A stretch of 37,517 nucleotides of DNA from Reclinomonas americana ATCC 50394 (Eukaryota): positions 1 to 37,517 of the forward strand of contig PS015549.1 of NCBI GenBank assembly GCA_048213135.1, in the 5' to 3' direction. The number at the start of each line of letters is the position of its first letter. Position 1 is the first letter of the stretch. The notes beneath the pieces were generated by a model. The model worked only from the letters and a program-made list of their open reading frames with translations. It made no database searches and had not been told where the DNA came from. This document shows, one piece after another, positions 1 to 36,951 of this stretch. The position numbers and the translations under genes were made by a program.

Positions 1-1858
1 GTCGAGCCACGTCTCGCGCGCCATGCGTGGCACACTGCGGCAGCGCAGCGGCGACGACGGCCGCACTGGCGGCTCGCACACCGGCATGTGCACCACAGGC
101 TGCGCCGGTGGAATCAGCATACACCGCGGCAAGGAGAGGGTGCCCGAGGAAGCGGCCGCGGCCAGCAGCATGGCCGACGACGACGACGGCAGTGGCGGTG
201 ACGGTGAGACGTTGACGGCGAATGGCGAGTCGGGGATACCGCCACGACGCGCGCCAGAGACAAGACCCGGAATCTGAGGTAGTATCTTGACGGGCGTCAT
301 GAGGCCGTTCCCGTGGCCAGACGACGACAACTGCGACAGGAGCATGGCCACATTGGTTGATGACGGGCTGCGGCAGCGGCGAGTGGTGGTGGTGGTGGTG
401 GTGGAAGTGTTGTGGCCTCGTGCTGCAAGCGTGGCAGCCGCCTTGAAAGCCGCGTGCTGTAAAAAACAAAAAAAGAATCGCGACAAGAAACGGAAGTGGG
501 GGGTGAGTCGCGAGAAGAAAACAAACTACGTGATGCTGCGAGAGAATCCACACACAAACCTCGTCGTAGCGCAACAGCATCTCGGGGCCCATCTCACCCC
601 CGGAAGCGTCACTCGAAGATCCCGCCGCCGACGTGTCGCTCATGTCCGCGTCCGTCAGCGGTGGCGAGGTAAACGACGGAGCGGCAAAGTGCATCAGCGG
701 AACGTGACCGACGCCGCCCAGCGGATACGGAGGCCGTGGCTGCGAAGAGATGCGCATAAGAATCAGCGTCGCGGAGATGTGAGGCTGCAGAGGCAGGCAG
801 CAGGCAATATGTCCAAAGGGACAAGGAAGGGGAAAAACAAAAAACATGCACACAGGACTATAGCTAATAAATAATATTTGACGGAGATGGTCAACGTCCC
901 GACCAGAGGCACAGAAGAAATGCGAATCTCAGCCCTCCCCCCAGTGCGGAGAACGTGGCAAGGGCAAAAGAGGATGTACTGTGCGACACAGCAGTGAAAT
1001 ACGGCAATTCCCGGACTCACCAACACAGGGAACTCGCGGTGCGTCTCCTGCTGCATCTGAGGCATCAGCAGGTGCGGCTCACGGCGCTCCTTCTTGCGGC
1101 GGTTCTCAAACCACACTGTGCGGGAGGGAGGAGAGGAGACAAGGGAGAGAGGGAGTCGACAAGTCAGACATCATCGGAATTATACATCACACATGCCAAG
1201 TTGAATTGGACACCCGAAAGAAAGAATAGCAGCACAATCGTGCGACCCGCCCAACCGCCCACCCACAGGGAATCTCACGACGGCACGCAACTCTGCACAG
1301 AGCGGGCGGAGCGACCGAGCAGAGCACCGAGCTGTTTCTTGCGCTTGGCATCGGGATACTGCAGTAGTAATGTATATTGTCAGAAAATGAAGGAAAAATC
1401 CCACGTAAGAGGGGTGAGGGTGGGAAGAGTATACACGGGTGGTTAGGGGGGGAGAGAGAGCGCGCGTGGTATCATGACAGCGAGTGTGAGAGAGACAAAC
1501 AAACAGAGAGAGAGGTCACGACAGATTTTGCGTAGTCGCAATTCGTGAAAACCGCGTCAATGGCATTCTCACACACACACACACAACACTCACACACACG
1601 AAACCCCGCAGTGACGACAGCACAACACACACACACTCACACGCAAACATGCGCACGCACGCACACGCATATGCACACACGCGCACAATTGAGGGGGGCA
1701 GAGAGAGGAAAAGAGACTTGTGCGACACAGAGAGAAACAGCGTGAGAGAGTAGAGAATCCGTACACAAACTCACCTTGTTGTGGGAAAACTCCTCCAGCA
1801 AAATCTCTTGTGCCTCGGGGGTGAAGCGGATGTAGGAGCGCTTGAGTGGAGCAGTCAT
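1..1858 (-). CDS. Homeodomain transcription factor (non-TALE); 3' end runs off the window
   Basis: Exons 1858-1775, 1358-1292, 1115-1021, ~785/739-560, ~457-<1. Spliced N-terminus MTAPLKRSYIRFTPEAQEILLEEFSHNK|YPDAKRKKQLGALLGRSARSVQ|MWFENRRKKERR gives exact homeodomain spacing (F8, L16, F20, Y25, P26, W48, F49, N51, R53). A long Ser/Pro/Thr-rich open frame follows. Confidence 0.88.
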
Positions 1859-2683
1859 GTGTTTTTCGCACAGAAAGTAGAACAAACAAAAGGACACAAC
1901 CAGCGCTCCGAAGACGACGAGAAAGAAAGTCTGAAAAGAAATTTCTGAAAATTCTCGGCGCCAAAACCCCTGCCCTCTGCGCCCGCCCACCAGTGGCATT
2001 TCATGCACGGATTCGCCATCAGCGCGAAAGACAGGTAACCGCAAGGCGCTGCACGCGCCCGTCCCTACCTGCAACGACAAGCGGCGCGAGGGAAGAGTGG
2101 GAGCAGGGCGGCGGGGGCACAGCTGCAGTCGAACGTGTGAGACTTGGATTTGAAAGGAAACAAGTGACCGAAAAGCGGTCGCAGAGACAATTCGATGGGC
2201 GTTCTTTCGCGCGCAGAAGAGGGCACACAAGAGCGATAGAACCAAACCACGCAAGAATATACTTGTTTCAAATGCCAGGCACCAGAGAATCTGCCATGGC
2301 TCTCCACAACGAGTGCCATGCACGGCGGACGAAGCGCAGTGGGGGCGACGGCACGTTCCCACCACACAATGCAGACGTTGGCATGCAACAGTCAACGCCA
2401 ACGAACATAATCACTGCATTACCGGAACAGGAGGGGCGACGCTCTTCATCGTGTGGGGTCAACGCGCTCCTGTTTTTGGTGAAAACAACCACCCACAAAG
2501 TAAGATAAAGCGCTCACACACGCACAGCAACAACATGCAATCACCATGCGATGAGAGGGAGGCGCACCGATGTAGAACCGCGGAACCAATTGAGTTGGTA
2601 TCGCGAGAGAAGACGCGAAAGGAATGCAAGCACTCTCTTTCCTTTCGGCTTCATAGTAGACGCCGTCCGCCGAGAGCCGGCTC

Positions 2684-3551
2684 TCACGGCGGAGCGAATG
2701 AGTCTGCCGCCGCAGCGACAGTGACGGTGGCGGTGGCGGCAGTGCTGCCGCTGCGATGGACAGGAAGGGCCGCGAACCGTGAAACGCGGTGACGCGAATC
2801 GGACATGCTGCCGATGGTGGCGGCGGCGGTATCGACAGGCTCCACCACCGTGTCGGGCACGGCCTCCACCAAGCAATGCGCAAACGCCGTGAACTTGCGG
2901 AAGCGAGCGCGGTAGATGGTGGTCAGTGTTGATTCCACCACCTGCGCACGCGCCACATCCAACTGCCGCTGCCACTCCAACCGCACTGACGATACAGACC
3001 CGCGACGCGCATTAGCTCGTCCACCGCCCACTGTCGCCTCTACCTCCGCCTCTGCCGCAGCCACCGCCGCTGCCTCTGCCGCGCGAGAGCCCTCCACCTC
3101 CACATCAAATCCGCCCAGCAGACGCATTTCCTCCTCCAGATCCTCTGTGCATGCAAGCATAAGAACACGCACAGATAGGAGATCAAAGAGTGGAAGGCGA
3201 GAGATATAGAATAATACGCGAAAGGCCCCTCATACACCGAGATATCGAGGATTACCAAATAGTACATGTCGAGATTGATTGCGCATACAATGCGCACGTC
3301 CCACACATTCACACACACGCACCCTCTCACTCACACACACACGCTCTTTCTCTCTCTCTATCACACACTCTTGCACACACACACACAGGTGAGAGAGAGT
3401 GCGAGAAAGAGAGAGAGAGAGACAACACGCCTTTCAACTGTTGCTCAATGATGGCCGTGGTCATTTGCACCACGCGATCGGCAATATCTCGCCGCACTTG
3501 CACAGGCAGCTGCTCATACGCAGCAGACGGCGAAGAAGACAAGTGCGCCAT
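2684..3551 (-). CDS. Hypothetical protein (about 190 aa, 2 exons)
   Basis: Exon 3551-3431 (MAHLSS...IIEQQLK) joins exon 3144-2684 (EDLEEEMRLL...) in phase through a GC-AG intron at 3430-3145. No recognisable domain. Confidence 0.5.
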
Positions 3552-3652
3552 CACAAACAACAAGAATAAAAAATCGATTGATTGGCACATCATTGTAAAC
3601 GGCCGCGCTGTAAACGCACTCTCTCTCTGATATATCTGTGTGCGTGCAAAAG

Positions 3653-3906
3653 ATGAGAGTGAAGCCAAAGCCGAGTGAGTTTGGAGGCAACCTCACCTTC
3701 TCGGATGTGACAGAGAGTGAGTGTGAGTGGCTGCGGTCGGCCACGTTTGATCAGGTCAAGGAGTTGCGTTGAGAGAGTGAGAGAGAGAGAGCAGTGAACA
3801 GTGAGAGGTGGGGAACGAGACACAGGGGAGAAACAGCACAGAGAGAGACTAGAATGGCAGCGAGCGGCATGGCCTGATGGTGGTTGAAACAACGGCGGTA
3901 TTCGCA

Positions 3907-3974
<68 letters not shown>

Positions 3975-4878: not shown

Positions 4879-4973
4879 GCGTTCTGTATTCTGCCCCTGC
4901 AGACGCACACACGTCCTCGCCGGTCATTGTACACAAGCCATCCATATGGGTGTATGCGACGAATTTGAGGTCC

Positions 4974-5732
4974 TCACTTGTTCTTCTTGCTGGCGGCCTT
5001 CTTGTGGCCAGCTGGCTTGTTGAAGTAGAGCACGGCGCTCACGCCCATGTAGTAGGGCACCCAGAACCAGGTCACCAGCGAGCCTAGCGGGAACGTCCGC
5101 ATGGTGATCCAGGCCTTGGCCAGTGCGCCGACCATCATACCGGCGGCAACCGACTTGGTGGTGTGCTCATTCACTTTGATCCTGTTGGGAGAGGGAGGCA
5201 AGGCTCACTCTGGTGAGCAGCGGTGGTGGACGCACTCACACGTGGTGGTGCGCTGCAGACGCAACACGGCGAGGACGGAGGCACCGAAGAGAAGCATCGA
5301 TCCACACGCCTGCAATATATGGGGGGACGACGAAATCAGACTGAAGGAGGACGTGGTGGAGCGGGAGGGAACAGGTACAGCAGTCAGCGCTACCTACCTG
5401 CATGAGATGCACAAACTCGGGAGTGATGCCCACCACACCTGCACGAAGAGAGAAAATGATCACATGCACGATTCTTTTTTTCTTTTCGTTTGCAAGCACG
5501 TGCACTGCGCGCAACTGCTGAACATGATGTGGCTGGCCACCTCGGGCACCACAATGCACATGAGGCCCATCGCCAGCCTGGAGATATCGACACCAGAAAT
5601 CAGAAAAACAAAAAAGGGAAAACGAGCCGGAAGGGAAATGTAGGTGTTCGCTTCGCCCGGTAATTGACAGAAGACAACGCACCAAAGCACACTCGTGAGC
5701 AAGAAACAAGGTCGCACCAAAGCCGCTGTCAT
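4974..5732 (-). CDS. Small 4-TM membrane protein, paralog 1 (142 aa)
   Basis: Exons 5732-5683, 5577-5516, 5438-5398, 5309-5242, 5181-4974 in phase. Four hydrophobic segments and a basic tail (KKAASKKNK). Confidence 0.72.
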
Positions 5733-6774: not shown

Positions 6775-7579
6775 CTACTGGCTGACACTCTGCTGCTCAC
6801 CACCGCCAACACCGGTGCCACCAACGGCCGGCGAATTTCCGCTTCCCTTCTGCGACTTGCCTTCAACCGGTGCCACATCGGCGCGCTGTTGCTGGTCGTG
6901 AATCATGTGGCTGACAGCCTTTCCCATGTGCTTGATCGGCTTCTGCATCAGCAGCAGAGATCCGATGATGCCGTTGAGGACGATCCACATCCACGTCATG
7001 ACAGACGCATGCGTAAAGTGCATGATCGCAGAATACGTGAGCACCAGCGCTGATACCCACGCGCCAATCCCCACACCGACGACGGTGTTGCGATCCTGCT
7101 GCAGCCTGCACATGCGATCGTAGGCGACTGAGTGCATCGCCTTGGGGGTAACAGTCGTTGCCTGAAGAGTCGCGACGCAACGTGCACAACAGTGTGCTAA
7201 CAATCACCGACACACAACCGAAAGACTGCATGGGTGGTGCAAACGCAGCGTGAGTTGCACGATATGGTGACGATGTGGAGGAGTGGCACGTCAACCTGGA
7301 TCATAAAACGAAGGGCATTGGTGACCTCCACGTCCTCTGCGCGCAGCGCAAGAGGCGGTGTTAGCACACGAGACGCCACTCAAGGGCGGCTACGTCGAAG
7401 CGCAACTGCTAAAGTAGAACGAGGCTGAGGTATCGGGGAAGCAGAGGAACTGCACGCCGTTGAGCAAACTGCATCAACCACGGTTAGTCATACCGCCCAA
7501 AGCCACAAGAATAATGCTCTCGACGCACGACGCACCACAATGCAGACTCCACGAGAAAGATGGTGCGAGCAAACTTCAT
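6775..7579 (-). CDS. Small 4-TM membrane protein, paralog 2 (173 aa)
   Basis: Exons 7579-7536, 7468-7407, 7336-7296, 7225-7182, 7105-6775. Same intron phases as paralog 1, and identical exon 2 and 3 lengths (62 and 41 nt). Confidence 0.72.
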
Positions 7580-7832: not shown

Positions 7833-9715
7833 TCAGTAAGAAGTCTTGCTGGTGGCGGTGGCCATGGTGATGGTGTGAGCAGCCGGCGCGCGGTAAGCAG
7901 GCTGCGGTGGAGCTGGATTCCACTGCTGCGGCGGGGGACCACCGCCACCGGGAACGGAGGGAGGCAAAGCGCCTCGCCGCTGAGCCTTTTCTCGTTCAAG
8001 TGCCGGGAGAATGTTCTGCGAGCGACCAATGAGGAGACAACTCGAGGGACGAAAGAAAGGGGTGAGTGTGGTGAAACACACGTAATGTGCATGCTGAAGT
8101 GATGCCTGCAACTCGGCGATCAAGCGGCGCGTGGCACTCGTGTCCAGGCCGACTGCCTCCTGAGCGCGCAGATTCTCCTCCTGGTAGGCCATCTTGTAGG
8201 TGCCGCGAAGCAGTTGGTTGGTCAGGTACCTGCACGTGCATGTGAGTGGGTAACAAGCGAGATGGCGAGTGCAGGTGGGAAGACGACTCAACGCCCACGG
8301 AATGGTGACCGAGTGTTGTTGGATGTCGGCTGAGAGGGGGAATGGAGTGTGAGCTTGTACATGTGTGGAGAACGAGGAGAAGGCGAGAAGTCGAAAAACG
8401 AACCGATGCCAGGAAGAATTCGTCGCCACGCTTCCTGCGGTGCACAGGTGAGCATTATCACAACGACAAGACAATACCACTGATGGTCACCTTGAACACC
8501 TGACAGAGAACGATGAGCAACAACGGAGTGCTAATAAGCACAAGCCACTGAATGATGACAGACCTCACTGCCCATTGGCGGCGCCGTGGCTTGCAGCTCG
8601 ACTGTGAGACAGCGGCCGGTCTGTACGAACAGCGAGTTGAGCAACGCTGGGGATGTCCACTCAAGCAGCATGCTTTGCCTCGACGCAACGCGGACGATAA
8701 AGTCGGGGTTGGGCGGACCCATCTCTCGAATCTGCCGCTGCAGATGTGCGCACACCTCCGCCGGGTCGTCTGTGCGTCGTGTGTGCCCAGTTAATGCCAC
8801 ACACGCACCACGCAAGACACATCCACCCAACACACACACATACCAGAGACCCATCCACGGAATCTCGTGCGGTCCTCCTCGCTCAACGCGGCCAGCACCG
8901 CTTCACCCGGATCAGTCGGTGGTGCATGTGCCATCTCGTGAATGACATGTACATGGGTGCATGTTGCCGGCGTGACGTCTGCACGCCATTGTCAACAGAA
9001 TAGGAAAGGGGCATCGTGAAAGAGGCAAAAAGAGCGAACCGTGGTGTTCGCGGTGGTTACGGCGACCGACGAGGCGATTGACGCTGGTCACGACGCCTGC
9101 ACCCGATCGCCAAGAATACAGTTGAGCCGAGACAGGAGATGGAGGAGGGAGAGAGAGAGAGGAAAGACGGCGCAACGTTGCATGCTGTCCACGCCAAAGC
9201 CCTGCATCGACCTGGCCAGTACGTGCGTCTGACCATCGCTGTACAACAAGAGGAGTCAGCGATGGAAGAGAGAAGAGAGCGGAGAGAAGGAGGGGAACCT
9301 TTTGGTAAAGTGAATGCCCATCGTCCGGCCGTGTTTGCGGGAGTACGCGCAGTGGAAGTTCGCTCCATTGACATCTACGCGTGCGTGTGATTACTGCATG
9401 ATGATGAATGCATCTGTCTATCTCACACGCAACTCTCAATGTCTGACTCGCCCGAGCCGCAGCAACTGCAGCAGCACACGGGGTCCTTCTTCACGTGACA
9501 GTGGCCAGTGCGGTCGAGGTCGTACGTGTCAGTGGTGCTGCGCAGCATGAGAGAAAGACTGAGGGAGAGAGAGAGAGAGAGAACACAGAGACTAACCAGC
9601 AAAAGTATCCGAGTCCGCACGAGAAGAGAATGGAGAAGCAGTGCTCGTAGCAGCCGATGCCCACTTGGAAACGCACATGTTGGTCGTCCTCTTCCAGAAT
9701 GTCGTAGTTGACCAT
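7833..9715 (-). CDS. Uncharacterised Cys-rich protein with Pro-rich tail, copy A (about 13 exons)
   Basis: MVNYDILEEDDQHVRFQVGIGCYEHCFSILFSCGLGYFCC|TTDTYDLDRTGHCHVKKDPVCCCSCCGSGESDIE|...|TNQLLRGTYKMAYQEENLRAQEAVGLDTSATRRLIAELQ...KTSY*. Exon-by-exon homology to copy B validates the exons. Confidence 0.8.
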
Positions 9716-10571
9716 GGCGCGAGGGAGAGCGAGTTAAAAAGTGTGTCTGAATTCGGTGAATATTCCGGGATAAACCGGTCAACTGACGTCGCTTGGCCTG
9801 TACCACTGCTCTCTATCTGTAGTCCTGGTAGAAGGGAAGCGAGCGATGCAACTCGAATTCGAATTGCAGCTGACGAAATCGATCGATAGATATCGCGAAT
9901 ACTAATACGAAGCTCGACCGCGCAGAATTCGAGTCAGCAACAAGCAGCAACAGCTGCGTTGGTAACAAAGTAGAGCTGTGATCAACATAGACATCAGTCC
10001 TGACGGGCACAGTGGAGTTTCTTTCGACTCGCTCATGGAGCTGCGAATTCGAATAAATTCGAAAACCTGCGCGAATGCACGCAGAAAGCCCTTGTGCCAC
10101 AAAGCCAGGCGATTGGTTCGCTGTTTGGACTGGGCTGCACGTGGCTCATCGAGGCAGCTGCTGCATCAGTCGGAGCGTTCATGGCGATAAACCGTTCGCG
10201 AACCCCGAGCTCCATATTGCAGTTGCAGATCCGGATCCAGTTTCCACCTTTCCGATCGTGCAAGTCGGGGTTCCTCTCCCAGAACGCCAAGACTTTCTCC
10301 TTCGCTGTTCGGGCGATGCATTGCTCAAGGGCCGCGTCCGCGATGAGCTGTCGGAAAATTCCCCGCGGATATCCGCACATACTTCGTCTTANNNNNNNNN
10401 NNNNNNNNNNNNNNNNNNNNNNNNNNNNNNNNNNNNNNNNNNNNNNNNNNNNNNNNNNNNNNNNNNNNNNNNNNNNNNNNNNNNNNNNNNNNNNNNNNNN
10501 NNNNNNNNNNNNNNNTCTCTCTCTCTGTGTGTGTGTGTGTGTCTCTCTCCCCACACTCACATGCTGCGCAG

Positions 10572-12575
10572 CACCACTGACACATACGACTTGGATCGCA
10601 CTGGTCACTGTCATGTGAAGAAGGACCCGGTGTGCTGCTGCAGTTGCTGCGGCTCGGGCGAGTCAGACATTGAAGGTTGCGTGTCTGTGCGAGAGAGTTG
10701 AGAGAGAAAGAGAGAGAGAGAAAGAGAGATGTGTATGTGTGCGTGCATTGATGATCAGGGATTCGGTTGCTCATGCATGGATCGCAGATGTGAACGGCGC
10801 CGACTTCCACTTCTCGTTCACCCGCAAAGGCGGCCGCACAGCGGGCATTCACTTGACCAGCGGGTGCGCCCTCTCTTTCTCCCTCTCTTAACCTCTCGTC
10901 TCCTGCGCACTCACTCGCGGATTGGCAGTGACGGCCAGACTCACCGATTGACGAGGTCGATGCAGAACTTTGGCGTGGCCGGCATGCAACGTTGCGCTTC
11001 CTCCCTCTCTGTTCTCTTCCCTCTCTCTCTTGGTGTGGCTCAACCGCTCCTTGGCGATCGCTGCAGGCGTCGTGAACAGCGTCAACCATCTTGTCGGCCA
11101 CCGCGATCGCTTCGGTTTGTCCCCGTTTATGACGCACACGCGCGCGCTCTCTCTCTCCTTTACCCTTCTTCTTCTGTTCTCACCCGTCATCTTTGCTATT
11201 GTGCAGGGATCACGACAACGACTCACGTTTCCGACATTTTGCGGCACGCCGATCGCGAGATGGTGCACAGGGACCCGGGCGAAGCAGCGCTGGCCATGTT
11301 GACCGACGAGGACCGTACCAAGTTCCGCGCCTGGGTCACTGGTGCGTGTGGCGATGTGCAAATATCTGGACCAACGCTGGTGTGTGGCATTAACTTGGTG
11401 GCGGCGCGCACAGACGATCCGATGGAGGTGTGCACGCAGCTGCAGCGACAGATTCGAGAGATGGGTCCACCCAACCCCGACTTTATCGTCCGCGTTGCGT
11501 CGGCATGAGAGAGCCACTTGCATGCCCCTTCCCAGTTTTCTTATCCAGTGCGTGCAGGCGGATCGCTGCCTGACGATCGAGCTGCAAGCCACGGCGCCGC
11601 AAATGGGCAACCAGGTTTGTCGTTCTGTGCTTGTTATGTTGTTTTGTCTTCTGGGTGTTGCTCATCCGCGTGCTGTGGCAGGTGTTCAAGGTGACCAATC
11701 ACGCCAGTTGACGGGTCATTGTCGTCGTGCTGAAGCTCACCCTCTCGTTGTGCACCGCAGGAAACGTGGCGACGGATCCTCCCGGGCATCGGTGAGTCGG
11801 CAGAGATCTTGCTTTTTATTCATGCATGCTCACTCTGTGCATTCCTGCCCCTGTCAGTTGACATTCAGGAGAACTCTGTCACCATTCCCTGGAAGTTGCG
11901 TCTTCCAACCTCTCCTTCTCTCAGGCTGCACATGTTCTCTTTTCCTCTATTCTCTTTCATTCTTCTTTCTCTCATTGTTTTCTTCACCTCTCTCTCTCTC
12001 GGATCTTCCCTCTCAATCCTCTTTGCTGTCACTGACATTCACCAACTCTACACCCAGCTGTTCTCTGTGTTTGTTGTTTTTCTTTCTGGCCACTCATCCA
12101 ACTCACACGCACGCGTGCAGGAGCATGACCAATCAACTGCTCCGCGGCACCTACAAGATGGCCTACCAGGAGGAGAATTTGCGCGCCCAGGAGGCAGTCG
12201 GCCTCGACACGAGTGCCACGCGCCGCTTGATCGCCCAGCTGCAGGTGTCGCTGCAGTACTCGCACCAGGTGAGTTTGTCTTGGCCCCGTTTTTTTTTTCT
12301 TGATGCCGTGAGCTCGTACGCCTCACTTTGTCGCATGCCACTGGCAGCACATTCTTCCGGCACTCGAGCGAGAAAAGGCTCTGCGGCAAGGTGCACCGCC
12401 GCCCTTTGCGCCAGTGCCTGCCGGCGTGCCACCGCCACCGTACGCCACAGCACCCCCGCCTCCGCACTACGCGAGCGCGCCACCGCCACCGCAGCCAGTC
12501 TACGGCGCGCCGGAAGTCGATGTCACCACGTACTCCACCACGTACTCCACCACCACGACCACCACCACCAAGTGA
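10572..12575 (+). CDS. Uncharacterised Cys-rich protein with PPxY tail, copy B (exon 1 lost in the N-gap)
   Basis: Inverted paralog of 7833-9715 with the same intron positions. Ends ...VPPPPYATAPPPPHY...TTTK*, TGA at 12573-12575. Confidence 0.8.
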
Positions 12576-25697: not shown

Positions 25698-25780
25698 TGC
25701 GAGAACAACGAGTCGTTCGCGACGAGGAATTCTACGATGGTGACGACGATCAGGATCACGACTTCCTCGATCGTATCTGA
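25698..25780 (+). CDS. Last exon of the class I HDAC (on an apparently inverted contig)
   Basis: REQRVVRDEEFYDGDDDQDHDFLDRI* resembles the Rpd3-family C-terminal EF(Y/S)D acidic motif. Confidence 0.6.
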
Positions 25781-25917
25781 TGTATTCTCTGTAAACGATG
25801 ACCGACGCATGTTATGTTGAGTGGGTCGGGGAGGGGATGGAGGGAAAAATGACTGGACACCAACACGCGATCGATCTGTGAATCGAACCATCATCAATTA
25901 TTGTCAGACCACGAAAC

Positions 25918-26080
25918 ATGGAGAAAAAGCCATGTTTCATGCACCTCCGCAAGGCCGGTGGCTGCAAGCGCGGTGATGCATGTCCATTCGTCCACGCTAC
26001 CACCTGGGCCGATGTGCCAGCCTGCACCAACGGCGATGCATGTCGAGTGGTTGACTGCCCATTCCGTCATCGGAAGGATG
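25918..26080 (+). CDS. Tandem CCCH zinc-finger exon, probable exon 1 of the RBR gene (inverted contig)
   Basis: MEKKPCFMHLRKAGGCKRGDACPFVH...CTNGDACRVVDCPFRH. Its phase-1 donor matches the phase-1 acceptor at 25299. Its intron (26081-26140) matches the reverse complement of 25348-25408. Confidence 0.75.
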
Positions 26081-26107
26081 GTGTGTGTGTGTGTGTGTGC
26101 GTGTGTG

Positions 26108-26139
<32 letters not shown>

Positions 26140-26160
26140 TNNNNNNNNNNNNNNNNNNNN

Positions 26161-27448
26161 GTCGCGAATGTCGCCCGTGCCGGGGAAGTAGTCGCCAAAC
26201 TTGTGGAACGACACTGTCATCACGCGGTCGGTGGTGTAGAACGCCTCCTCCACGCCATCGCCGTGGTGAATGTCAATGTCGATGTACAGCACACGCGCAT
26301 GCACCCTGTGCACACACATACAAAAGAGAGAAAGGTCAGCCAGGCAGAATAAAAAGAGAGAGAGAGAGAAAGAAACGCGCACGGACGCAACTTGAGCAGC
26401 TCCAAGATGCCAAGCACAATGTCGTTGACGTAGCAGAAACCCGACGCCTCGGCCTTCTTGGCATGGTGCAAGCCACCGGCCCAGTTGATGGCAATCTGCA
26501 ATGGCGTGCATTGTGAGAGGAGGAGGCGCAAAGGGGTGCGTAATGCAAGGTGGAACGCACATCAGACTGGCCCGTGTTGAGCTTGACCGCACCGGCCACC
26601 GAGCCGCCAGCACAAATCTGGCAAAACTCATACAGGCCGTCAAAGACCGGGCAATCGTCGCCCACATTGACTGCGGAGGAGGCGGTGAAGGTGAGGGAGG
26701 GAGAAAGAGAGAGGGAGGGAGGGAAAACACGTGGGACGCAACAGAGGCTGAGTTGCCGCGAAAAGTCCTGCATGTTCTCGGGCGAGATTCGCCGCAAGAA
26801 GTCAATGTAGTCGTCCGTGTGGAACTTGGTGAGCTCTTGCTCCGTCGACAAGTGTGGTCTCTGCAGGCGAGTGAAGGTAAGAACGTGAAAGGATAGAGAA
26901 GAAAGCAAAGCAAAATGGTTTGGTGGTGAAAAACGCAACATACACCGACATCTTCTTGTACAGGCCGTAGTTGAGGACGAGGTTGTGTGTCATCTTAATG
27001 CGGTGCGGCTTCATCGGATGGCCTTGGCCATAGTAAAAGTTGCCAATCGCGGCTGCAGGGGGGAAAAAAAAAAGGCGGACACTTTAGCATGGAGCAAAAA
27101 AATAAACACAAACAAAAAGAGGCGGTGCAAGGAGAGAGGGCAGAGCAGGGTAAAAGGACACAAAAGTGACGCGGCAAGAGAGACAGAGAAAGTTTGCGCG
27201 CGCGCGGGATAAAACGAATAAACAAAAAATGTCTTTTTCCTCCGCCCGCTGCAGGCATCACGCACTCGCACCACGCACGACGCACACGCGCACAAACAGA
27301 AAAGCGAGAGGAAAAAACACAGACAAAAAAAGTGCCCGACATTTCACCATGGCAAACACACACAAACACAAACACAAAACAAATGCAAACACACACATCA
27401 CACACTGACGCAACAATCGTAAAAGTACGATATCCGCGGCTTGGACAT
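26161..27448 (-). CDS. Class I histone deacetylase (Rpd3/HDAC1-like), N-terminal half
   Basis: [30 protein letters not shown]...|[12 protein letters not shown]...|[25 protein letters not shown]...|[41 protein letters not shown]. Confidence 0.97.
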
Positions 27449-27699: not shown

Positions 27700-30600
27700 A
27701 TGGCCTCGATTCCTGAGTTCATTCCCATGGCGCATCGGCTGCGACAACAACAACAACAGCAGCAGCAACAACAACAAGCGCAGTTCACTGAGACGGGTGA
27801 TGAAGGCGACTTTGAGGAAGATGAGGGCGAGGAATACTATGATGATGATGAGGAGGGCTACTATGAGGATGAAGACGATGGTCAGTGCCTCTGTCTCTTG
27901 CTGTGTGTGTCTCTATCACTCGCTCACTGATCAATGCGCACAGTTCATTCTGCTGCGGTGCGATGACTTGCTCTCTCTCTTGTCTCTTTCTGCGGGCACA
28001 GTGCTCACACTCCTCCTCCTCATACTGACAGGCGTTCCACCCTCGCTCACTGATGGTGAGTGCTGGCATGGAGGCTAGTGCTGGAGGATCTACTGGTGCT
28101 GCCGCTGCTGCTGCTGCGGCGGCGGCCAGTGGCAGTGGCGACTGGATGGACACGCATCACGTGTGCTGGAATGGAGGCGATGGAGCGGGCGTGTCGGCAG
28201 TGCTGATGGATCCGGCGCGTGAGGTGGTGTGGACCGGCACAGAGACGGTGAATAGCTCGCCTCTCCCCCTCTCCACTGGGGTGTTCTCTGCTCGCTCACA
28301 GCGGTGTTGATGTAGGGCCGAGTGGCGGCGTTCTCGTATCCCGACATGGAACCGCTGGTGGCGTTCCCTACGCAAATGCCCGTGTCGGCGCTGGGGCCTC
28401 TGGGAAAGGCCAGTGAACAGGGTCCGGTGGTGCAGTCGGTGCAGCGCTTGTTGTCGCTGGAGAACGAGCGGCTGCTGTGCTTGACGTCGGTCGCCCTGCG
28501 TGTGTTTGACATTGGCGGAGCTCCGGTGCTCTCGTGTCGGTGCGCGCCATCGTCCCTCGCCCTCCTCTCCGTGCTCTCCTCTCACCTTCCCGCGTCTGCA
28601 GACAAGACCGATTCACCGATCTGCTCTCTGCGTCGCTGTCGGTCACCAAGAAGCACGCCTACGTTGGTGGCAACATGCGATCGCTGTTCGTCGTGGACCT
28701 CGAGCTCGGTCGCCTGTTCACCGAGACGTCGGTGTCCAGTGGTGTGAGCGCACTCTTCACCTCGCCTGGGTCGCTGTGCTACGGCACGACCTCTGGCGAA
28801 GTGTGTCTGTGTGATCCGCGCTCACTGCGGCTGGCGCAAAACATCAAGGCGCACTCGGCAGTCACCGATGTCGCCGTGCAAGACAACCTGGTCGCCTCGT
28901 GCGGATTCATGGAGCGGTCTGTGTATGTGTGTGTGCGTGTCGCCGTCGTTGCTCGCTGCGACTGTGCGCTCACCGTACGTGTTGGTGTGGGCGCGTAGCA
29001 GATACGGCGAATTGTACCCCGACCCCTTCGTCAAGCTGTTCGACACGCGCATGAACGCACTCGTGTCGCAAATCTCGGTGACTGGCGGCAGCATGGCACT
29101 TCGCTTTGTTCCCAACCAGGTTCCGCGGGCATCACCTTTTTCGCACCACCTCCTCCTCCTCCTCCCCCTCATATTTCTCATGTGTTGTGCAGCGGCGACA
29201 CTTGGCGGTGGCGTCGCCGTCGGGCGTGATTGAGTTCCGCGACATTAGCACACCGTCCAACATGCTGTACATGTCGCTGAGCATGATCAACGCTCAACCA
29301 CAATCGCTGCTCTCGTTTGACTTGTCGTCGACTGGCGAGTGCATCGCCGCTGGCGATCGCTACGGCGACTTGCATTCCGTGTCGCGCGTCATTGACTCCA
29401 CGCTCAACTCGCGAGTCGAGTACTTTGACTTGTTGCCGGAGCCGCCGACTTTCGAATCGGTGGCGGTGCCGTTTGAGGCCGTGTTGCGTCCCACATCGTT
29501 GACAGTGGCTGCTCTTATAATTTGGTTGCTCATGCTGCTCCCCCGCCACCCACAGTCCCGTGTTTGCTGCTCCGGCACCGGCCTCCGGTCGCTACGCCTC
29601 TGAATGGCCGACCGACTTGTGCTCGGTTGGCGCTCGCCCGCCCGTCATCAAGTCCTCCATTCAGCAGTCGCTGCGTGTCACCGGATTCGTCGGTGCCATT
29701 TCGAATCCGGGTATCCGTTGCCACGAGCAGGCGTACGTCAAAGTGCGTGGCAAGGCGCGCAAGAAAATCACACTGCAAAGCATCGACGCCAAGGTGAGCT
29801 GCACATCTCCCTTTCTCTCTCGCTGAGAATCTAACGACTCACTTGTTGCGTCTCCACATCCAGGGCTCGCCCTTCCGAGCCATCACGGATGATCTCACGG
29901 AAAAGGCGCAACGGGAACGCATCCCCAAGATCTACCTGCGCGTGGAGAAGAAGCAGTCGGCGGTTTCGTGGGAGGAGTTCGACTTCAAGTTGCGCAGTGA
30001 TGCGCCTTCGTGTTGCTTTTGTTGCCGGTGCCACTCACACGCGCCTCACAGAAAGTACAACAAGACTCGCTTCTGTGGTCTGGAGAACGACTTGCCGAAC
30101 TGCTACGTCAATCCGCTCCTGCAAGTGCTGTACTTTACGCCGCGCTACCGCGATTTCGCCATGCAATACCTGTCCAACGATCGGCAGTTCTGCTTGGCCA
30201 GCGAGTCTGGTTTCCTGTTCCGTTTCGTGGCTCCCGCGACGCAGAGCGCCTTCTCCACCCCCCCCCCCCCCCTCCCTCCTCTCCCTCACACGCAGAGCTT
30301 CCGCAGACATGATGAAGCACTTCAAGGGCGGCACGGCGCAAGCCAAGAACTTTTTGCGCGTCTTCCGTCAGATCCCGCAAGGTGTGCATGTCGTTGTTCA
30401 CACGCGCCCCTTCCTCCTCCTCCTCTTCTAACAACGACGTGCAGCTGCCGCTCTCGGTCTGTTTGACGACATGGTGCAGGCGACACACTCGAGTGAGGAA
30501 CTCGAAGGCTCCGGCGGCAAGATCCAGAAAATGATGCGCTTCACTCTGGAGCACCTCAATCGCCTCCTCACCGAGGACTTGGAGGAGCAGGCCGCGAATC

Positions 30601-32935
30601 AGGCCTTCATCATGAGCCACATGTCGCGACCGCGCAATGCCCGTGGTCGTCAGGCTGCGGCCAGCAGCGAGGGTGGAAGCGGCTCGGAGGTGAGTTGGCG
30701 TGTTGTTCGCTCTCTCCCCCTACTCTCGCACTCGCAAATGTCCCCCGTTGATTCTTGTGCGCTTAGTCGGCGTCGTCGGCTGCACAGTCCCCGTCGACCA
30801 CTGTGATTGAGGACATTTGGGGCTCGATGATCTCCACCATCAATGTGTGCGTGCACTGCCGCACGCGGCACGTGCGCCAAGACCGCTCCTTCTGTCTCGA
30901 CCTGGCGCTGCCGGAGGACTCGTCGCCAGGCTCGCTGTTTGGCCTGCTGGCCTCATCTTTCCGTCGCGAAACCAAAACCAAGGCCTGGTGCAGCAAGTGC
31001 TGCGGCTACCAGCTGACGCAGCAGAAGAAGACTGTCACCGACCTGCCGAATTCAATCATCTTTAACTGCGGGCCTGTGAGCGAGGTTTGTGTGGTGCACG
31101 AAATGAGATGAGAGGATTCGAGGATTCATTTCCCCTCCGCTCATCCACTTCTTTTTTGTTTGTAGAAACTCATGACCAACAGCTTGAATTTGACGGAGGA
31201 AGGGCGCAAGATGCCGCCACGCTTCTTTGTGGACATGTCAAAAGCAGAGGAGGACGGACCAACTGTGGTGGAGAATGTGGACTTGTTTGACGATCGTTCA
31301 CGCTTTGTACAGTACGAGTTGTATGTTGCGTGCATGTCGCAAGCTGCTACCGCTTTGTGTATCATGCTGCTGCTGAGCTCTGGTATCCTTATGCAGGCCT
31401 TGATCGTTGACATTCGCCCACCCGACGACGACGAGGGTCACTTGGCTGCTCTCATCAAGGGTGCGTCGGCAGCGCGTCCCCATCCCTTCCCCTCTCGTGA
31501 TCGCCTAACATTTCCTTCTCTTCTGCACAGTGCCTCGGTCGTACTTTGAGGATGCGCAGTCGGTGGCGTCGCCAACACCAAAGAGTCCCACCGAAGTGAT
31601 GGCGTCGGGACGAGATCGTGAGTGGTTCCTGTTCAACGACTTTCTCATTTTCCCGGAGGACGAGGCGACGGCCATCAACTTTGCCCCGTTCTGGAAGGTA
31701 GCTGCACTGACGCTTTTCTCTGCTTCAATGCTCGGTGATTCTCACAAACATTGTGTGGCGTGATAGTTCCCGTGCATTATGCTGTATGCACGCGAGGGCT
31801 TCCTGGACGAGCCGACACCGTACCGCGGTCGTTTGCACTTGTCCGAGGCCGTGTTCCGTGATCAGGGATTGTCACGGTGAGACTCGCATTTGCTTCATTC
31901 TGCGTACCCCAATCTTGTCAACTGAACCATTCTCCGCCGCCAGCATGCAACCCTCGGCTCTGCGCTCCTTCCGCGCTCTCGATCTGCACGAGAACTGCAA
32001 GGGCCAACTGGTGGCAATTGATGCCGAGTTTGTTGCCCTCACCAAGGTTTGTGTAGGCTATTGGATGTGTGCGCGTTTGCACACCAATGTATTCATTGTG
32101 GAGCAGGAGGAGCGCAAGATGCTGCACGACGGCACAAGCGTGGTGGTCACGCCACCCATTCTGTCGCTGGCTCGTGTGTCGGTGCTGCGCGGCGGTGGGC
32201 CAATGGAGGGCGTGCCGTTCATCGACGACTACATTCACACGCCGGAGCAAGTGTCGGACTACTTGACGCGTTTCTCGGGCCTCGTGCCGGGAGACCTCGA
32301 TCCGAGTGTGTCGCGACACTTTGTCACGTCGCTGAAGGTGAAGGACTGAGTGAGGATTTGTGTTGGTGGTTGTGCTTTGCCTAACGGTGATTGGACGCAG
32401 GCGGCCTACTTGAAGCTGCGCTACCTGGTGGACAACAAGTGCATCTTTGTCGGCCACGGTCTGAAGAAGGACTTTAAGATCATCAGTTGCGATTTCTTCA
32501 ATTACGTGTATGTTGCAGCTGTCGTCATGCTCACTCTCCACCGCAGACATTTATGTTCCCGAGGAGCAGATGCGTGACACGGTGGAGTTGTTCAGCCTGA
32601 AGCAGCAGCGAAAGGTACGGCGGAGGAAAGGGCAGTGGAGGAAAGACTCGTGATGCTCATTCTGCTGTTCTTTAGCTGTCGCTTCGATTCTTGGCGATGC
32701 ACGTGCTGCGCGAGAACATTCAGGAGCAGACCCACGACAGTATCGAAGACGCGAGGACGGTGAGTGTCTGTCTGTGTGTGTCGGCTTCCCCCGCGTTGCT
32801 TCCTCACCACTGCGCCAGGCACTTCTGTTGTACAAGCGGTACTGCGAGCTGCAACAAGCCGGTACATTTGATCAGAAGCTCGAGGAACTGTACGCTATTG
32901 GTCGTCGCACAAACTGGCAAGTGGGTGGCAGATGA
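27700..32935 (+). CDS. PAN2: PAN2 deadenylase (WD40 - USP/UCH - DEDD exonuclease), about 23 exons
   Basis: WD40 region (DPFVKLFDTRM, SFDLSSTGECIAAGD). EEFDFKKYNKTRFCGLEN. Exonuclease motifs VAIDAEFVAL, LARVSVLRG, PFIDDYI, DYLTRFSGL, FVGHGLKKDF, THDSIEDART. Stop at 32933-32935. Confidence 0.96.
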
Positions 32936-33031
32936 CACAACGCTGCTTAAGTAAACACACTTCGTAATCCACGCAAACTGTCACTCCGACTTGTCCTACG
33001 ACGAATCACATCTCAGCGTCGTCTCTTGCGA

Positions 33032-35641
33032 ATGAGCGATCCACTGCTGCATGCCTGTGCCTTTGACTTGCTGGGCGATCATGCCTGGGAGCTCATTGCG
33101 CGGTTTCTCAACTTGTTGCGTCGCACAGGCTGTCTCCCTCACTCTTCCCCTCGTTTATGCGAGTTGTCTCACATGTGTCGCCAGTCGCGACTACACAATG
33201 TCCTGGCGCGTGTGCACTCGTCTGTGCGAGCTGCTGGAGACGCACATGAGTCGCATGCGACTAACACCCTTTGACGTGGCGCAACGCGGCGATCTGATTG
33301 TCACTGTGGATCACGTTCGCGCGCGTTTTCCGCGACTGATTGCTCTCGATCTGGGCGGCTTTGCGTTGGGCTTTGAGGGTGCCCAGTCGTTCGCACAAGT
33401 GCTGGCACGACACAGCAACTTTGTGGAACTCGATCTGACGCGTTGCGTTCCCCTCTTATCTCGATCACTGTGTGGAAATGGTCAATGACTGAAGAAGCCA
33501 CAGAGAACAACTTGCGACTGGGTGGTTCGCGAGTGGTGGGAGCTGCTGTGGCGGGATGCAGTCGACTGCAACGGCTTATGCTGGGCAAGAACGGCATTGG
33601 TCCGCAGGGACTGGCGGCGATTGTGCATGCTGTCGTGCAGTCCGAGTCGTTGACGGAGCTCGACTTGCGCAGCAACGGCATCACGCACGAGGGTGCGCAC
33701 CAGCTGGAGACACTGTTGAGAGGTACGAGGTGGGATGGAGTCGGGGAACGAGGCGGGCTTTTTGCTCACTCCTTGTCGTCGCGCGCGCAGAGAACGACAC
33801 GATCACGCACTTGGATTTGTCGGGCAACCGACTGCGTGCGTTGGGTGCGGCGGCAGTGGGTCGTGGCCTCGGTGTGAATCAATCGCTGCGCAGTCTGTCG
33901 CTGGCCGACACGAGTCTCGGCGACGAGGGCGTGATGGCCCTGTGCCGGTTTGGCGAGGCCGTACCGGATGCTGCGGAGGCGGCAGCGATGGAGGGCGAAG
34001 GCGCCCCTGCGGGAGCGGCGCCAGTGATCGACGTGGATGTGAAACCCGACAATGAGAGGCTCGCTGGCAACTTTACGCTGGAGCGCCTTGTGCTGACAAA
34101 GAACAACATTACGGGGGACGGCACGAAGGTGTTGCTGACGGCGGTGGGTGCGCCGCGCAGTCGGGTGTGTGATTTGGTGTTGGACAGCAATCAGTTGTCA
34201 TCGGAGGGCTCCTACGCCATTGGCGAGATGATTCGCGCACGGGTGAATGCCATTGCGCCGCTGAAGAGGATATCGCTGAAGGCCAACGAGATTGGGCCGG
34301 CGGGTGCACGGTGGCTGGCGACGGCGTTGGAGGCGACTCGCTCGCGGGTCAGTCTGGTGTTGGATGGTGCGTGTGCGTGAGGGTGGGCGAGGTGAGAGGC
34401 GGTGTGGTTAAGTGAATGTCGCACCGCGCAGGCAACACACTCGGCGGCACCGGTGTGCAACTGATGATGGAGAAGGTGCCGGTGACGCTGCTGAATCAAA
34501 TGAGTTTCCGAGGTTGGTTGCCGATGCTTGGTTTCTTTTGTGTGTCGGCCACTGACTGCGGCGTCGCACGAAATCAACAGACAACGGCATTGGCGAGCGC
34601 GGCATGCGTGCAGTGTCGGAGCGACTGGTTACGCTGGGGCGCATTCTCCTTGTTTTTCTTGGTCGCAGTGGCTGATTGTCGTCGTGCAGAGCATTAGCGG
34701 CATCCGGCGTGTGCACTTGGGCGGCAACGATCTGGGTGAACCCGGTGCCATGCTGTTGTACGAGGGACTGAAGGATCACACGCGGTTAACGGAGCTGCTC
34801 GTGCCATGTTGCGTTGTGTGATGTCGCCGATTGCTTCGCTCGACAGGGATTGACAGTTGATGGTGGTACGTGCAGCCAACAAGTTTGGCAAGGAGGGCGC
34901 GGTGTGGATTGCCCGACTGCTGACGGAGAATCGGTACATTGAGACGCTGTCGCTGGAGTGTTGCGTCGCTGCGCTCGTGCCTGCGCCACCTCACGCCACT
35001 CCGTGACCATTTCATCCTGCACACCACAGCCAATAGCCTGCGCGACAAGGGCTGCCTCATTGTCACCGAGGCACTTTCCGAAGGCCGCAATACGTCGCTG
35101 CGTCGTCTCAACCTGTCGTGGAATCACATTGAGGCGGAGGGCGTGCGGCCGTGGCAGTTCATGCTGCGCGACAACCAGACCCTGACTGAAATCGACATGA
35201 GGTGTGGGAGATTGTGTTTTCATCCCACACCTGATGTGGCTGACTTGCGTGCACGCAGCGCCAACCTGATCGACCCAGAAGGTGTCGCGTGGATTGCCAC
35301 AGGTGCGGAATGATGCTCGTCGTCGGGGGGGAGAGGAAAAAAACTCACCAATATACTACAGGGCTGGCTGGCAACCATTCGTTGGTCGGCCTCAGTTTGG
35401 CGTACAACCAGGTGTGGCCCGACGGCGCACAGTGCATCTACGACGCCCTGCAGCAGAATACCACCATTCGGAGAGTTGCGTCCACATTTTGCCAGGGCAT
35501 GCACGAGGAGCGACTCACACCCCATGAACACAGTTGGACCTCTCCGCCACCATCACTGGCGAGTCCGGGCCCAAGCTACTGCTCACGGCCATGCGCGAAA
35601 GAAGAGAGCGCAATCTGCCTCGCGTCGTGATCTCTCTCTAG
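33032..35641 (+). CDS. F-box-like plus RI-type leucine-rich-repeat protein
   Basis: N-terminal FDLLGDHAWELIARFLNFRDYTMSWRVCTRLCELL (F-box-like), then more than 15 LxxLxLxxNxIGxxG repeats over about 11 exons. TAG at 35639-35641. Confidence 0.85.
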
Positions 35642-35656
35642 TGAACGCACATTTCA

Positions 35657-36273
35657 CTAGTCGGCGTACTGCACCTGCGTGCGTCGTATTCTCTTCTCCA
35701 CGCGCTGCGGCACCTCACTGCGCAACCACCTCTGCGCGCGCAACGGCCACACCACTGCCACCGCACGTCCATCCACAATACGCGCCGGCAGCGGCCCGTA
35801 CATGTTGGCATCGACCGAGTTGTCAGAGTTGTCGCCCTCCATCCACAGAAAGCCGGCGGGCACACGAACTGCACCGTGCATGGGCGCTGTGTCGGCGCGC
35901 ACAGCAACTACATCACCGGGCGTGGCGACTACGCGTTTGATCACATACTGCTCGGCGTTGAAGGGGTTGCGATAGGTGACCACATCGCCCACTCGCACGC
36001 ATCGATGTGCATCGGAGAATGGATAGTTCCACACAAGAACCCACTCGCGGCCTTGCTGCGGACCGTCGGGGTTGAGCGAAGGCCACATTGATGCGCCTCT
36101 GAGTGCGCGCGCAAGTGTGAGAAGCATGCAAGGAGGAGTGTGAGCGGGCGAGTAAGTGTGCGCAACTGCACAGGTGCGATCTGCACGACTTTGACGCGGA
36201 TCAGTTGCGCCAGAGGGTACACAATGGCGAATGTCTTAACAAACTCCACGCCAAACAGCAGCAACTGTCGCAT
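35657..36273 (-). CDS. IMP2: Mitochondrial inner-membrane peptidase subunit (S26, IMP2-like)
   Basis: Exons 36273-36167 and 36098-35657: GASMWPSLNP, GDVV, IKRVVATPGD, VPAGFLWMEGDN, YGP, AVVWP. Confidence 0.85.
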
Positions 36274-36350
36274 CTCAACGGGGTAAGAAAGGACAAGGAT
36301 AGAGTGCGTCCTGTGCGTCCCACACACTGTCACGCACGCACTCGCTCATC

Positions 36351-36951
36351 ATGCAACGAGCGGCCCGAGTCGCGCGTCGCTTCTATGGCGGCCTGGCTGA
36401 CAAGGACCGCATCTTCACCAACTTGTTTGGAGAGCATCCGTATACGCTGGATGGAGCACTCAAGCGAGTTGCGTGAATGTGCAAGTGTGTGTGTGTGTGA
36501 GAGAGAGGGAGAGAGGGGAGAGAGAGAGCAGTGTGCAGTCGCCAGGTCGTGCTGTGTGAGAGAGAGAGAAACGAGTGCGTGTGTATACGTTGCGTTTTGC
36601 ACGTTGGAGTTCAATTGCGCTTGCATATGCACACGCATTCAACACATCTGCTGTGTGCGATGAGACAGAGCACGCACAGAGAGAGTGAACAAGTGTGTGC
36701 GTGAGAGCGAGGGAGGTGGAAAGCAAGCGTTTCTCAGTCGACATGGCGCGCAATGTCTCACTCTCTTCTTACTCTCTCTCTCTGTTTGGCTACTGTTTAT
36801 AGGGTGACTGGTACCGCACCAAGGATCTGATCACGAAGGGCTCTGACTGGATCGTGAATGAGGTCAAGAAGAGTGGATTGCGCGGTCGCGGAGGTGCAGG
36901 TTTCCCCTCGGGGCTGAAGTGGTCGTTTATGCCCAAGGTGTCCGATGGAAG
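36351..36951 (+). CDS. NDUFV1: Complex I 51-kDa flavoprotein subunit, first two exons
   Basis: Exons 36351-36467 and 36803-36951: [18 protein letters not shown]...|GDWYRTKDL...[23 protein letters not shown]. Continues past the window. Confidence 0.97.

Follow-up and report, generated by a model that had tools for sequence, protein, structure and literature searches.

A second class of 5' splice site tied to the last exon base in a 37.5-kb stretch of Reclinomonas americana

Introduction

At atypical human 5' splice sites, U1 small nuclear RNA (snRNA) can pair in a shifted (+1) register (Roca and Krainer 2009, cited through PMC4856993 and PMC9311317). Validated noncanonical U1 registers of all kinds make up about 1.5-2.1% of 201,541 human sites (PMC4856993). 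Here we analyse a stretch of 37,517 bases from Reclinomonas americana ATCC 50394 (contig PS015549.1; "the window"; G+C ~57%, six N runs, about 14 genes), in which the introns fall into two donor classes set by the last exon base (-1). After G, the intron tends to start GTNNGT, often GTGCGT or GTGAGT, and GTTGCG(T) is the predominant start after A, C or T. The second class is confirmed as real, and the mode of recognition of about a quarter of the introns may be one seldom seen in well-studied species.

The likeness to the human shifted register lies at the cut itself. At junctions fixed by homology or paralogy, the normal consensus comes one base late after the GU, and cleavage is at this GU and not at the junction of the U1 frame. 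The best predicted pairing, for an assumed textbook U1, would reach U1 C4/A3 through +6/+7. Unlike the human noncanonical registers, the sites described here account for 26-31 of 100 introns, depend on the -1 base, have their exon side shifted as well, and give a very weak predicted duplex with textbook U1. Bulge +2/+3 and asymmetric-loop U1 registers have also been described, with 68 predicted human bulge +2/+3 sites (Roca et al. 2012; Tan et al. 2016, PMC4856993). These share with the present sites one extra U beside the GU, but here the class is a major one, and neither dependence on -1 nor displacement of the exon side is expected of a bulge.

A division of 5' splice sites into two groups, AG//GUNNN and NN//GURAG, is known (PMC9803359; review PMC11732430), as are LUC7-dependent classes (PMC11842720). 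The window has the same architecture, in that exon-heavy and intron-heavy donors rarely coincide: a -1 G goes with degenerate +3/+4 positions and a non-G with a sharp motif, so that -1 G and the intron side are anticorrelated. Unlike NN//GURAG, the intron-heavy donors here carry GUUGCG(U), in which +5 is C in place of G and +6 is G. Where other eukaryotes carry GURAG-type donors at orthologous introns of a histone deacetylase (HDAC) gene, this genome has GTTGCGT.

In the mamiellophycean green alga Micromonas the donor consensus is AG/GTGCGT (PMC3879977; a single slash marks the exon-intron boundary throughout), and the donors after G in the window likewise have a GTGCGT core with C at +4. Mamiellophycean genomes differ in being intron-poor, with no GTTGCG class mentioned in the excerpted part of that source, and in a branch motif NCTGAC that lies 43-52 nucleotides (nt) upstream (PMC3879977), compared with CTCAC/CTCAT at ~17-18 nt here. 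A literature search, not exhaustive, that combined GTTGCG, GUUGCG or GTTGCGT with splice or intron terms gave primers and unrelated uses among the matches listed, and no account of this donor class. A study of cross-species 5' splice-site variation (PMC10581693) is without the words "register", "bulge" and "GUU", and uses "shift" once, for splice-site choice in a mutant. It is under active study whether U1 or U5/U6 decides the 5' splice site, and to what extent cleavage can be uncoupled from recognition (PMC11732430).

Results

Donors fixed without the donor motif

Junctions were placed with a custom protein-to-DNA spliced aligner whose only splice knowledge is GT/GC...AG, and by alignment of two paralogous genes. 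In the resulting motif-independent set (n=40), GTTGCG follows 13 of 17 non-G exon ends and 1 of 23 G ends (Fisher p=2.4e-6), which bears out the claim of an original prediction, made from the letters of this stretch, that two donor classes are linked to the -1 base. With one paralogue left out, the counts are 10/14 versus 0/15, or 10/12 versus 1/17, depending on the copy (p=5e-5 or 3e-5), and the HDAC, PAN2 and NDUFV1 genes alone give 7/9 versus 0/9 (p=0.0023).

Five introns of the HDAC gene, on the minus strand, come from spliced alignment to HDAC1/2 homologues. In PAN2, 12 junctions are backed by at least 10 of 21 alignments to full-length homologues. Three of these are non-G and nine are G, and GTTGCG occurs at none of the nine. 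One PAN2 donor, at 29483, is placed by a gene finder that does not see the -1 base (described below), and a further one, at 31325, is a candidate. The NDUFV1 donor at 36468 is exact because the exons flanking intron 36468-36802 match residues 58-87 and then 88-136 of PDB chain 6x89_V1, with none missing between the contiguous residues 87 and 88. The donors of these three genes that bear on the second class are as follows.

27408 to 27414 (-): HDAC intron 1 donor T/GTTGCGT; HDAC homologue alignment, position and phase shared with 2 other loci
26933 to 26939 (-): HDAC donor T/GTTGCGT; HDAC alignment, position and phase shared with 7 other loci (tac/GTAAGC, tac/GTGAGT and similar)
26736 to 26742 (-): HDAC donor T/GTTGCGT; HDAC alignment, position common to 4 other loci
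26385 to 26391 (-): HDAC donor A/GTTGCGT; HDAC alignment, position common to 3 other loci
26554 to 26560 (-): HDAC donor T/GTGCGTT, unshifted after non-G; HDAC alignment
29483 to 29489 (+): PAN2 donor T/GTTGCGT; -1-blind gene finder, narrowly the highest of three in-frame options in summed homologue score
29989 to 29995 (+): PAN2 donor A/GTTGCGC; 16/21 homologue alignments
30222 to 30228 (+): PAN2 donor C/GTTTCGT, a variant; 15/21 homologue alignments
31325 to 31331 (+): PAN2 candidate donor T/GTTGCGT of intron 31325-31396; weak, with 3/21 alignments spliced there
32486 to 32492 (+): PAN2 donor A/GTTGCGA; 17/21 homologue alignments
36468 to 36474 (+): NDUFV1 donor A/GTTGCGT of intron 36468-36802; contiguity of 6x89_V1

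The in-frame alternatives at 29483, and at another call, 28534, are not clearly separated by homologue scores. The predicted donor at 31325 finds weak support: the spliced version scores better with 14 of 21 PAN2 homologues, and gene finders read through it. This candidate intron (31325-31396, plus strand) is 72 nt long, in frame and stop-free, and its retention would add 24 residues to the PAN2 UCH domain; a PDB search with 31166-31546 gave no PAN2 match.

A head-to-head inverted duplication around the N run 10392-10515 supplies the paralogues, copy A from 9591 to 7883 (-) and copy B from 10522 to 12513 (+), for either of which no Pfam family was found. The copies are 70-77% identical in DNA, with introns partly included, and have 11 intron positions in common, at which similarity fades a few bases inside the intron. 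At four of these positions both copies have a GTTG-type donor. The introns at 9433 (A) and 10676 (B) are equivalent, with exon ends GAGA and GAAG respectively.

9427 to 9433 (-): copy A donor A/GTTGCGT; alignment with B, motif-free and -1-blind gene finders
10676 to 10682 (+): copy B donor G/GTTGCGT, the sole GTTGCG after G; alignment with A
9170 to 9176 (-): copy A donor C/GTTGCGC; A/B alignment, pairs with B 10991
10991 to 10997 (+): copy B donor C/GTTGCGC; A/B alignment
8683 to 8689 (-): copy A donor C/GTTGCGT; A/B alignment, pairs with B 11494
11494 to 11500 (+): copy B donor C/GTTGCGT; A/B alignment
8286 to 8292 (-): copy A donor C/GTTGAGT, a variant; A/B alignment, pairs with B 11895
11895 to 11901 (+): copy B donor A/GTTGCGT; A/B alignment

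A window-wide set blind to the last exon base

Introns across the window were called with a dynamic-programming gene finder whose score combines codons, signals at the acceptor and branch site, the final 40 bases of the intron, its length and the donor. Its donor score is a two-component model limited to +3..+8, so that the -1 base and the exon side have no influence on donor choice. After strand resolution it gave 142 introns. Four calls that contradicted homology or paralogy (27223, 27324, 27480 and 8837) were removed and three motif-independent donors that it had missed were added, which makes 141. Requiring both flanking exons to score at least 2 and a length of at most 130, and keeping all motif-independent donors, left 100 introns. 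In a separate, motif-free run, GT was the sole donor signal.

Among the 100 filtered introns, GTTGCG follows non-G exon ends in 25 of 44 cases and G ends in 1 of 56 (p=1e-10), or 29 and 2 with the variants GTT[GT][CAT]G included, and the motif is accordingly not independent of -1 in the window. The pattern recurs in the 61 filtered introns that lie outside the homology set (13/28 versus 0/33) and in all 141 introns (30/69 versus 1/72). The dependence is confined to -1, with p = 0.12, 0.44 and 0.62 at -2, -3 and -4.

Within the 19 filtered non-G donors that lack GTTGCG, four are fixed by homology or paralogy (26560, 8081, 8292 and 30222) and several are doubtful; at 28534, for example, an in-frame G/GTGCGC lies 6 nt further on and homologues are undecided. 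Because such doubtful calls sit in the non-G remainder, 25/44 is a lower bound. The original prediction had tallied 36 of 42 non-G junctions as shifted and put the share of such introns at about a third. The direction of the tally holds, and 36/42 is compatible with the 25-29 of 44 found here as a lower bound. The share is somewhat smaller than claimed, at 26 of 100 for strict GTTGCG and 31 of 100 with variants.

Each of the 18 donors named in the original prediction has the motif given for it after A, C or T, GTTGCG at 17 and GTTTCGT at 30222. Eight were fixed blind to the donor motif (27414, 26939, 26742, 26391, 29989, 30222, 32486 and 36468) and eight were picked by the -1-blind gene finder (29483, 33115, 33442, 34808, 34960, 35475, 36166 and 1291). 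Members of the second class placed by the gene finder, and one further candidate, are as follows.

33115 to 33121 (+): LRR gene donor T/GTTGCGT; -1-blind finder
33442 to 33448 (+): LRR gene donor C/GTTGCGT; motif-free and -1-blind finders
34808 to 34814 (+): LRR gene donor T/GTTGCGT; -1-blind finder
34960 to 34966 (+): LRR gene donor T/GTTGCGT; motif-free and -1-blind finders
35475 to 35481 (+): LRR gene donor A/GTTGCGT; -1-blind finder
36160 to 36166 (-): signal-peptidase (S26, IMP-like) gene donor A/GTTGCGC; motif-free and -1-blind finders
13131 to 13137 (+): donor T/GTTGCGT; motif-free (GT-only) and -1-blind finders
13335 to 13341 (+): donor C/GTTGCGT; -1-blind finder
14844 to 14850 (+): donor C/GTTGCGT; motif-free and -1-blind finders
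15191 to 15197 (+): donor T/GTTGCGT; motif-free and -1-blind finders
15480 to 15486 (+): donor A/GTTGAGT, a variant; motif-free and -1-blind finders
1285 to 1291 (-): donor A/GTTGCGT in the putative homeobox gene of the original prediction; -1-blind finder
5259 to 5265 (-): donor T/GTTGCGT; -1-blind finder
7175 to 7181 (-): donor C/GTTGCGT; -1-blind finder
7400 to 7406 (-): donor A/GTTGCGC; motif-free and -1-blind finders
16878 to 16884 (-): donor T/GTTGCGT; -1-blind finder, the motif-free run having taken an in-frame GT 3 nt upstream
17304 to 17310 (-): donor A/GTTGCGC; motif-free and -1-blind finders
19011 to 19017 (-): donor A/GTTGCGG; -1-blind finder
24287 to 24293 (-): IBR/RBR-type gene donor A/GTTGTGT, a variant; motif-free and -1-blind finders
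3763 to 3769 (+): candidate A/GTTGCGT in the presumed CLAMP/CFAP119 gene; motif present, not recovered as a donor

Several other approaches and searches were less useful. Codon usage alone as a gene finder merged genes and strands, a filter on G+C at third codon positions was of no use for coding open reading frames (ORFs), and raw k-mer tables were dominated by microsatellites. A Markov term for intron interiors over-called long "introns" and displaced known HDAC donors by 6-9 nt, and was capped. Pfam, run on 338 ORFs, gave a sparse gene map only, and had no match to the exon upstream of 36166 as a check of exon contiguity. Protein searches with a PAN2 exon and with an EF-hand exon found no match, and no relative turned up when metagenomes were scanned with the PAN2 exon.

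Motif abundance, controls and old intron positions

GTTGCG itself occurs 27 times on each strand, for 34.3 expected under a second-order Markov model, and GTTGCGT occurs 31 times for 7.1 expected, a 4.4-fold excess that composition does not account for. Only 2 of the 31 GTTGCGT copies follow G. Set against the map of accepted introns, 25 copies are sense, 3 antisense and 3 unassigned (binomial p=2.7e-5); this strand map is partly built on the same donors and agrees with the gene map from Pfam and homology. Of the 25 sense copies, one is preceded by G, fewer than a 25% background would give (p=0.007) or the 56% G found at -1 of all donors (p=4e-8).

The aligner was also applied, as a control, to 80 HDAC-encoding metagenome contigs. 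Of the 257 introns that it returned there, 135 follow non-G and not one starts GTTGCG. The aligner does not create the motif, which is peculiar to this genome or lineage. Intron positions were compared with those of 59 distinct other HDAC gene structures, and all four HDAC GTTGCG introns match the residue and phase of introns in other loci (2, 7, 4 and 3 loci). The matching donors elsewhere follow the same non-G exon ends and are aca/GTAAGT, tac/GTAAGC, tac/GTGAGT, tat/GTGAGT, agt/GTGAGT, aat/GTAAGT, caa/GTGAGT, taa/GTAAGT and similar. Judged by these positions, the HDAC GTTGCG introns are old, and in this lineage GTTGCGT occupies the place that NN//GURAG donors have in other eukaryotes.

These results bear on whether the class is an artefact or another type of intron, arising from mis-called junctions, chance k-mers, U12-type introns or introners. 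The earlier tally was manual and made with the motif in view, in-frame alternative GTs are frequent in poorly conserved genes, and motif-free gene-finder runs often moved donors by 3-9 nt, all of which could favour such an origin. It is countered by the 40 junctions fixed without the motif, the 0/257 of the control, the 25:3 ratio of sense to antisense copies and the old positions. Hallmarks of U12-type introns are an RTATCCTT-type donor and, close to the 3' end, a TCCTTAAC-type branch site. The donor GTTGCGT is unlike RTATCCTT, and the branch-like CTCAC/CTCAT lies at the same distance in both classes. Introner elements were rejected too: intron interiors have no mutual similarity beyond low complexity, and the HDAC introns are at ancient positions. 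The artefact or other-type reading is largely refuted, and we give it hardly any credence.

Anatomy of the two classes

Donors after G (the G class, n=56) have G at +3 in 32 and T in 16; A, C and T at +4 in 20, 19 and 13; G at +5 in 44; and T at +6 in 34. The non-G class (n=44) has T at +3 in 32, G at +4 in 31, C at +5 in 30 (G in 8), G at +6 in 34 and T at +7 in 25. Donors of the form GT..G thus number 8 of 44 after non-G and 44 of 56 after G. The conserved GCGT block and the G-N4-GU spacing are both retained in the non-G class and start one base later.

A seesaw compensation in an unchanged register, in which sites without -1 G take the strongest intron motif and are read mainly by U6/U5, would fit the degeneracy of the G class at +3/+4. 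The G class, however, has its own unshifted consensus (+5 G 44/56, +6 T 34/56) and not a weak GUUGCG, and therefore the register itself depends on -1. We also know of no evident complementarity of GUUGCG to the U6 ACAGA box, which we count against compensation. We regard this alternative as very improbable.

The exon side moves as well. Across 29 shifted donors, exon bases -2/-3 fit the G-class -3/-4 better than the G-class -2/-3, with a gain of 10.3 nats (bootstrap 95% 3.1-17.7; 99.8% of resamples positive). The -1 base of the shifted class (A11 C9 T9 G0) resembles the -2 base of the G class (A22 T16 C12 G5; 5/55 G). We read the rule "not after G" in this way, as the usual scarcity of G at -2 in a displaced frame.

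The exon side also bears on a canonical U1 and/or U6 helix with a bulged U at +2/+3, in which the cleavage frame and exon contacts would remain canonical. GU-U-GCGU is indeed GUGCGU plus one U, an extra nucleotide would also have to be fitted when U6 pairs with G+6/U+7, and bulge +2/+3 and +3 registers have been validated in humans (PMC4856993). A bulge leaves unexplained why the motif is scarce after G (1/23 and 1/56), where a -1 G would add a pair, and -1 G is present at only 1 of 26 GTTGCG donors. The exon bases -2/-3 fit the shifted and not the canonical frame, although the 10.3 nats may be confounded by phase, and RNAduplex gave no stable bulged duplex for the consensus. The exon-side displacement therefore favours a shift of the whole frame over a bulged intron U, and we consider the bulge improbable.

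At the 3' end the classes are alike. The last match to a branch-like CT[ACG]A[CT] before the 3' splice site was found in 14 of 25 shifted and 39 of 53 G-class introns, mostly as CTCAC/CTCAT, at distances of 17.5 and 18 nt respectively. Median intron length is 70 nt in the shifted class and 67 nt in the G class, and interior composition is alike. An all-against-all blastn of intron interiors (filtered set) gave 17 matches of 14-31 nt, all low-complexity, and no intron families. With common 3' signals, composition and length, and without families, a separate intron type (U12-like or introner) is therefore disfavoured.

Less frequent branch-like forms are CTAAC, CTGAC and CTGAT, and the base at acceptor -3 is C in 78 of 97 introns. 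Among the 56 G-class donors, the 16 with T at +3 take forms such as GTTTGT, GTTCGT and GTTCCG; most eukaryotes follow a purine rule at +3, and this number is far above what the rule would allow.

Recognition frame and U1 pairing

The account that we favour, with confidence a little better than even, is that of one early recognition frame, G-N-U-G-C-G-U together with exon-side preferences, used in two registers. In register one the leading G would be the last exon base, with the cut after it; in register two it would be the first intron base, with the cut before it, at the sole GU present. For about a quarter of introns, the frame would then be uncoupled from the cleavage site, by one base. We infer that a U1-type snRNA pairs with the frame through its 5' end, after which the GU determines, at the U6/U5 stage, where the cut is made. 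The reader is probably lineage-specific, with a changed or second U1 5' end or with support from a U1C/LUC7-type protein. We put forward only tentatively, as possible though short of probable, that the recognition frame and the cut bond are uncoupled genome-wide, a quarter to a third of introns, ancient ones included, being read one base deeper by a changed or additional U1-type snRNA or a U1-associated protein adapted to GUUGCGU.

The displaced frame is supported by three independent features, whereas the U1 mechanism is unproven and, for textbook U1, energetically unconvincing. Duplexes were computed with RNAduplex for a U1 5' end given as the textbook sequence, with pseudouridine (Psi) as U, which may not be that of the host. 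With H for A, C or T, the energies are +0.5 kcal/mol for H/GUUGCGU, -1.1 for H/GUGCGU and -2.7 for H/GUUGAGU, compared with -5.0 for G/GUGCGU, -5.4 for H/GUAAGU and -5.5 for H/GUGAGU. The class means are -0.84 for shifted sites (n=26) and -6.9 for the G class (n=55). In the best duplex with this assumed U1, C4 pairs with +6 at 11 of 26 shifted sites.

Several of these results weigh against the account of one frame in two registers. Since H/GUUGCGU is weaker than H/GUGCGU, G+1 in the "-1 slot" adds no pairing, and the strength of U1 pairing alone offers no explanation for the preferred extra U. The proposal in the original prediction that G+1 substitutes for G-1 in U1 pairing thus keeps its shifted frame and loses its gain in pairing with textbook U1. 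The base before the conserved G is C over A by 25:2 in the shifted class and 11:14 in the G class (p=2e-4), and the second class is therefore not a plain slide of one consensus. The predicted one-base displacement of the consensus accordingly holds for the displacement of intron and exon matrices and fails at this base, where A would be expected to win opposite Psi. Coding phases 0/1/2 are 6/10/9 in the shifted class and 26/17/10 in the G class, and with phases so different, codon-position composition may contribute to the exon-side result. The unshifted T/GTGCGTT at 26560 and the G/GTTGCGT at 10676 are exceptions in opposite directions. All junctions rest on DNA, homology or paralogy, and come from one 37.5-kb window in which paralogue pairs are mutually non-independent. 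Either a lineage U1 or second U1-like RNA with another 5' end, or U1C/LUC7 support, or later U6/U5 contacts might make up for the missing pairing.

The same figures lend some weight to a dedicated reader, for which GUUGCGU would be a motif in its own right, bound by a second U1-like or altered snRNA (its 5' end resembling ACGCAAC) or by a protein specific for the sequence, the motif's likeness to G/GUGCGU being partly coincidental. The non-G class is sharp at +3 to +6 and pairs worst with textbook U1, its C over A preference is unlike the G class, and variant U1 snRNAs exist in humans (PMC3561869, PMC10870369). The exon-side displacement and the kept G-N4-GU spacing are nevertheless simpler under a single frame, and the 3' signals are identical in both classes. 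On balance a dedicated reader seems to us rather unlikely.

If the account of one frame in two registers is right, a natural genome would have apparently thousands of displaced-frame introns, chosen by one exon base, and a register known as a rare human oddity would have become a main splicing code. Exon-side preferences that move with the frame would point to an early, U1-type step and not to U5, which must track the cut. Such a genome would offer a ready-made comparative and genetic system for splice-site recognition, and gene finders with a single donor model would mis-call about a quarter of its introns.

Other features of the window

A micro-exon of 9 nt (GTGTTCAAG), between CAG/ and /GTGACC, is kept in both paralogues, at 8491-8499 (-) and 11682-11690 (+); the motif-free gene finder overlooked that of copy A. 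The HDAC gene is broken at Pfam profile position 187/298 by a 20-base N run (26141-26160, minus-strand gene). Beyond this gap lies a CCCH zinc-finger ORF on the opposite strand (25850-26140), and the remaining HDAC is missing; the break may be an assembly join or misassembly. For the NDUFV1 exons (36372-36467 and 36803-36949, plus strand), the closest solved structures are plant chains (mung bean, Arabidopsis-type), at 95.8 bits compared with ~75 for mammals; the exon, 49 residues long, aligns end to end to the best plant chain with few substitutions, which is a lineage hint only.

Intron length across the window has a median of 64-70 nt. Long microsatellites of the (GT)n/(CA)n and (GA)n types, as at 3342-3427 and beside N runs (e.g. 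26080-26140), flank several assembly gaps, and the GT/CA repeats attract spurious Rfam matches to micro-RNA families. No spliceosomal snRNA was found in the window by Rfam even at a permissive threshold. The sole Rfam family at gathering score is the U3 small nucleolar RNA (RF00012, 54.5 bits), present at full length between protein-coding genes at 22118-22320 (+).

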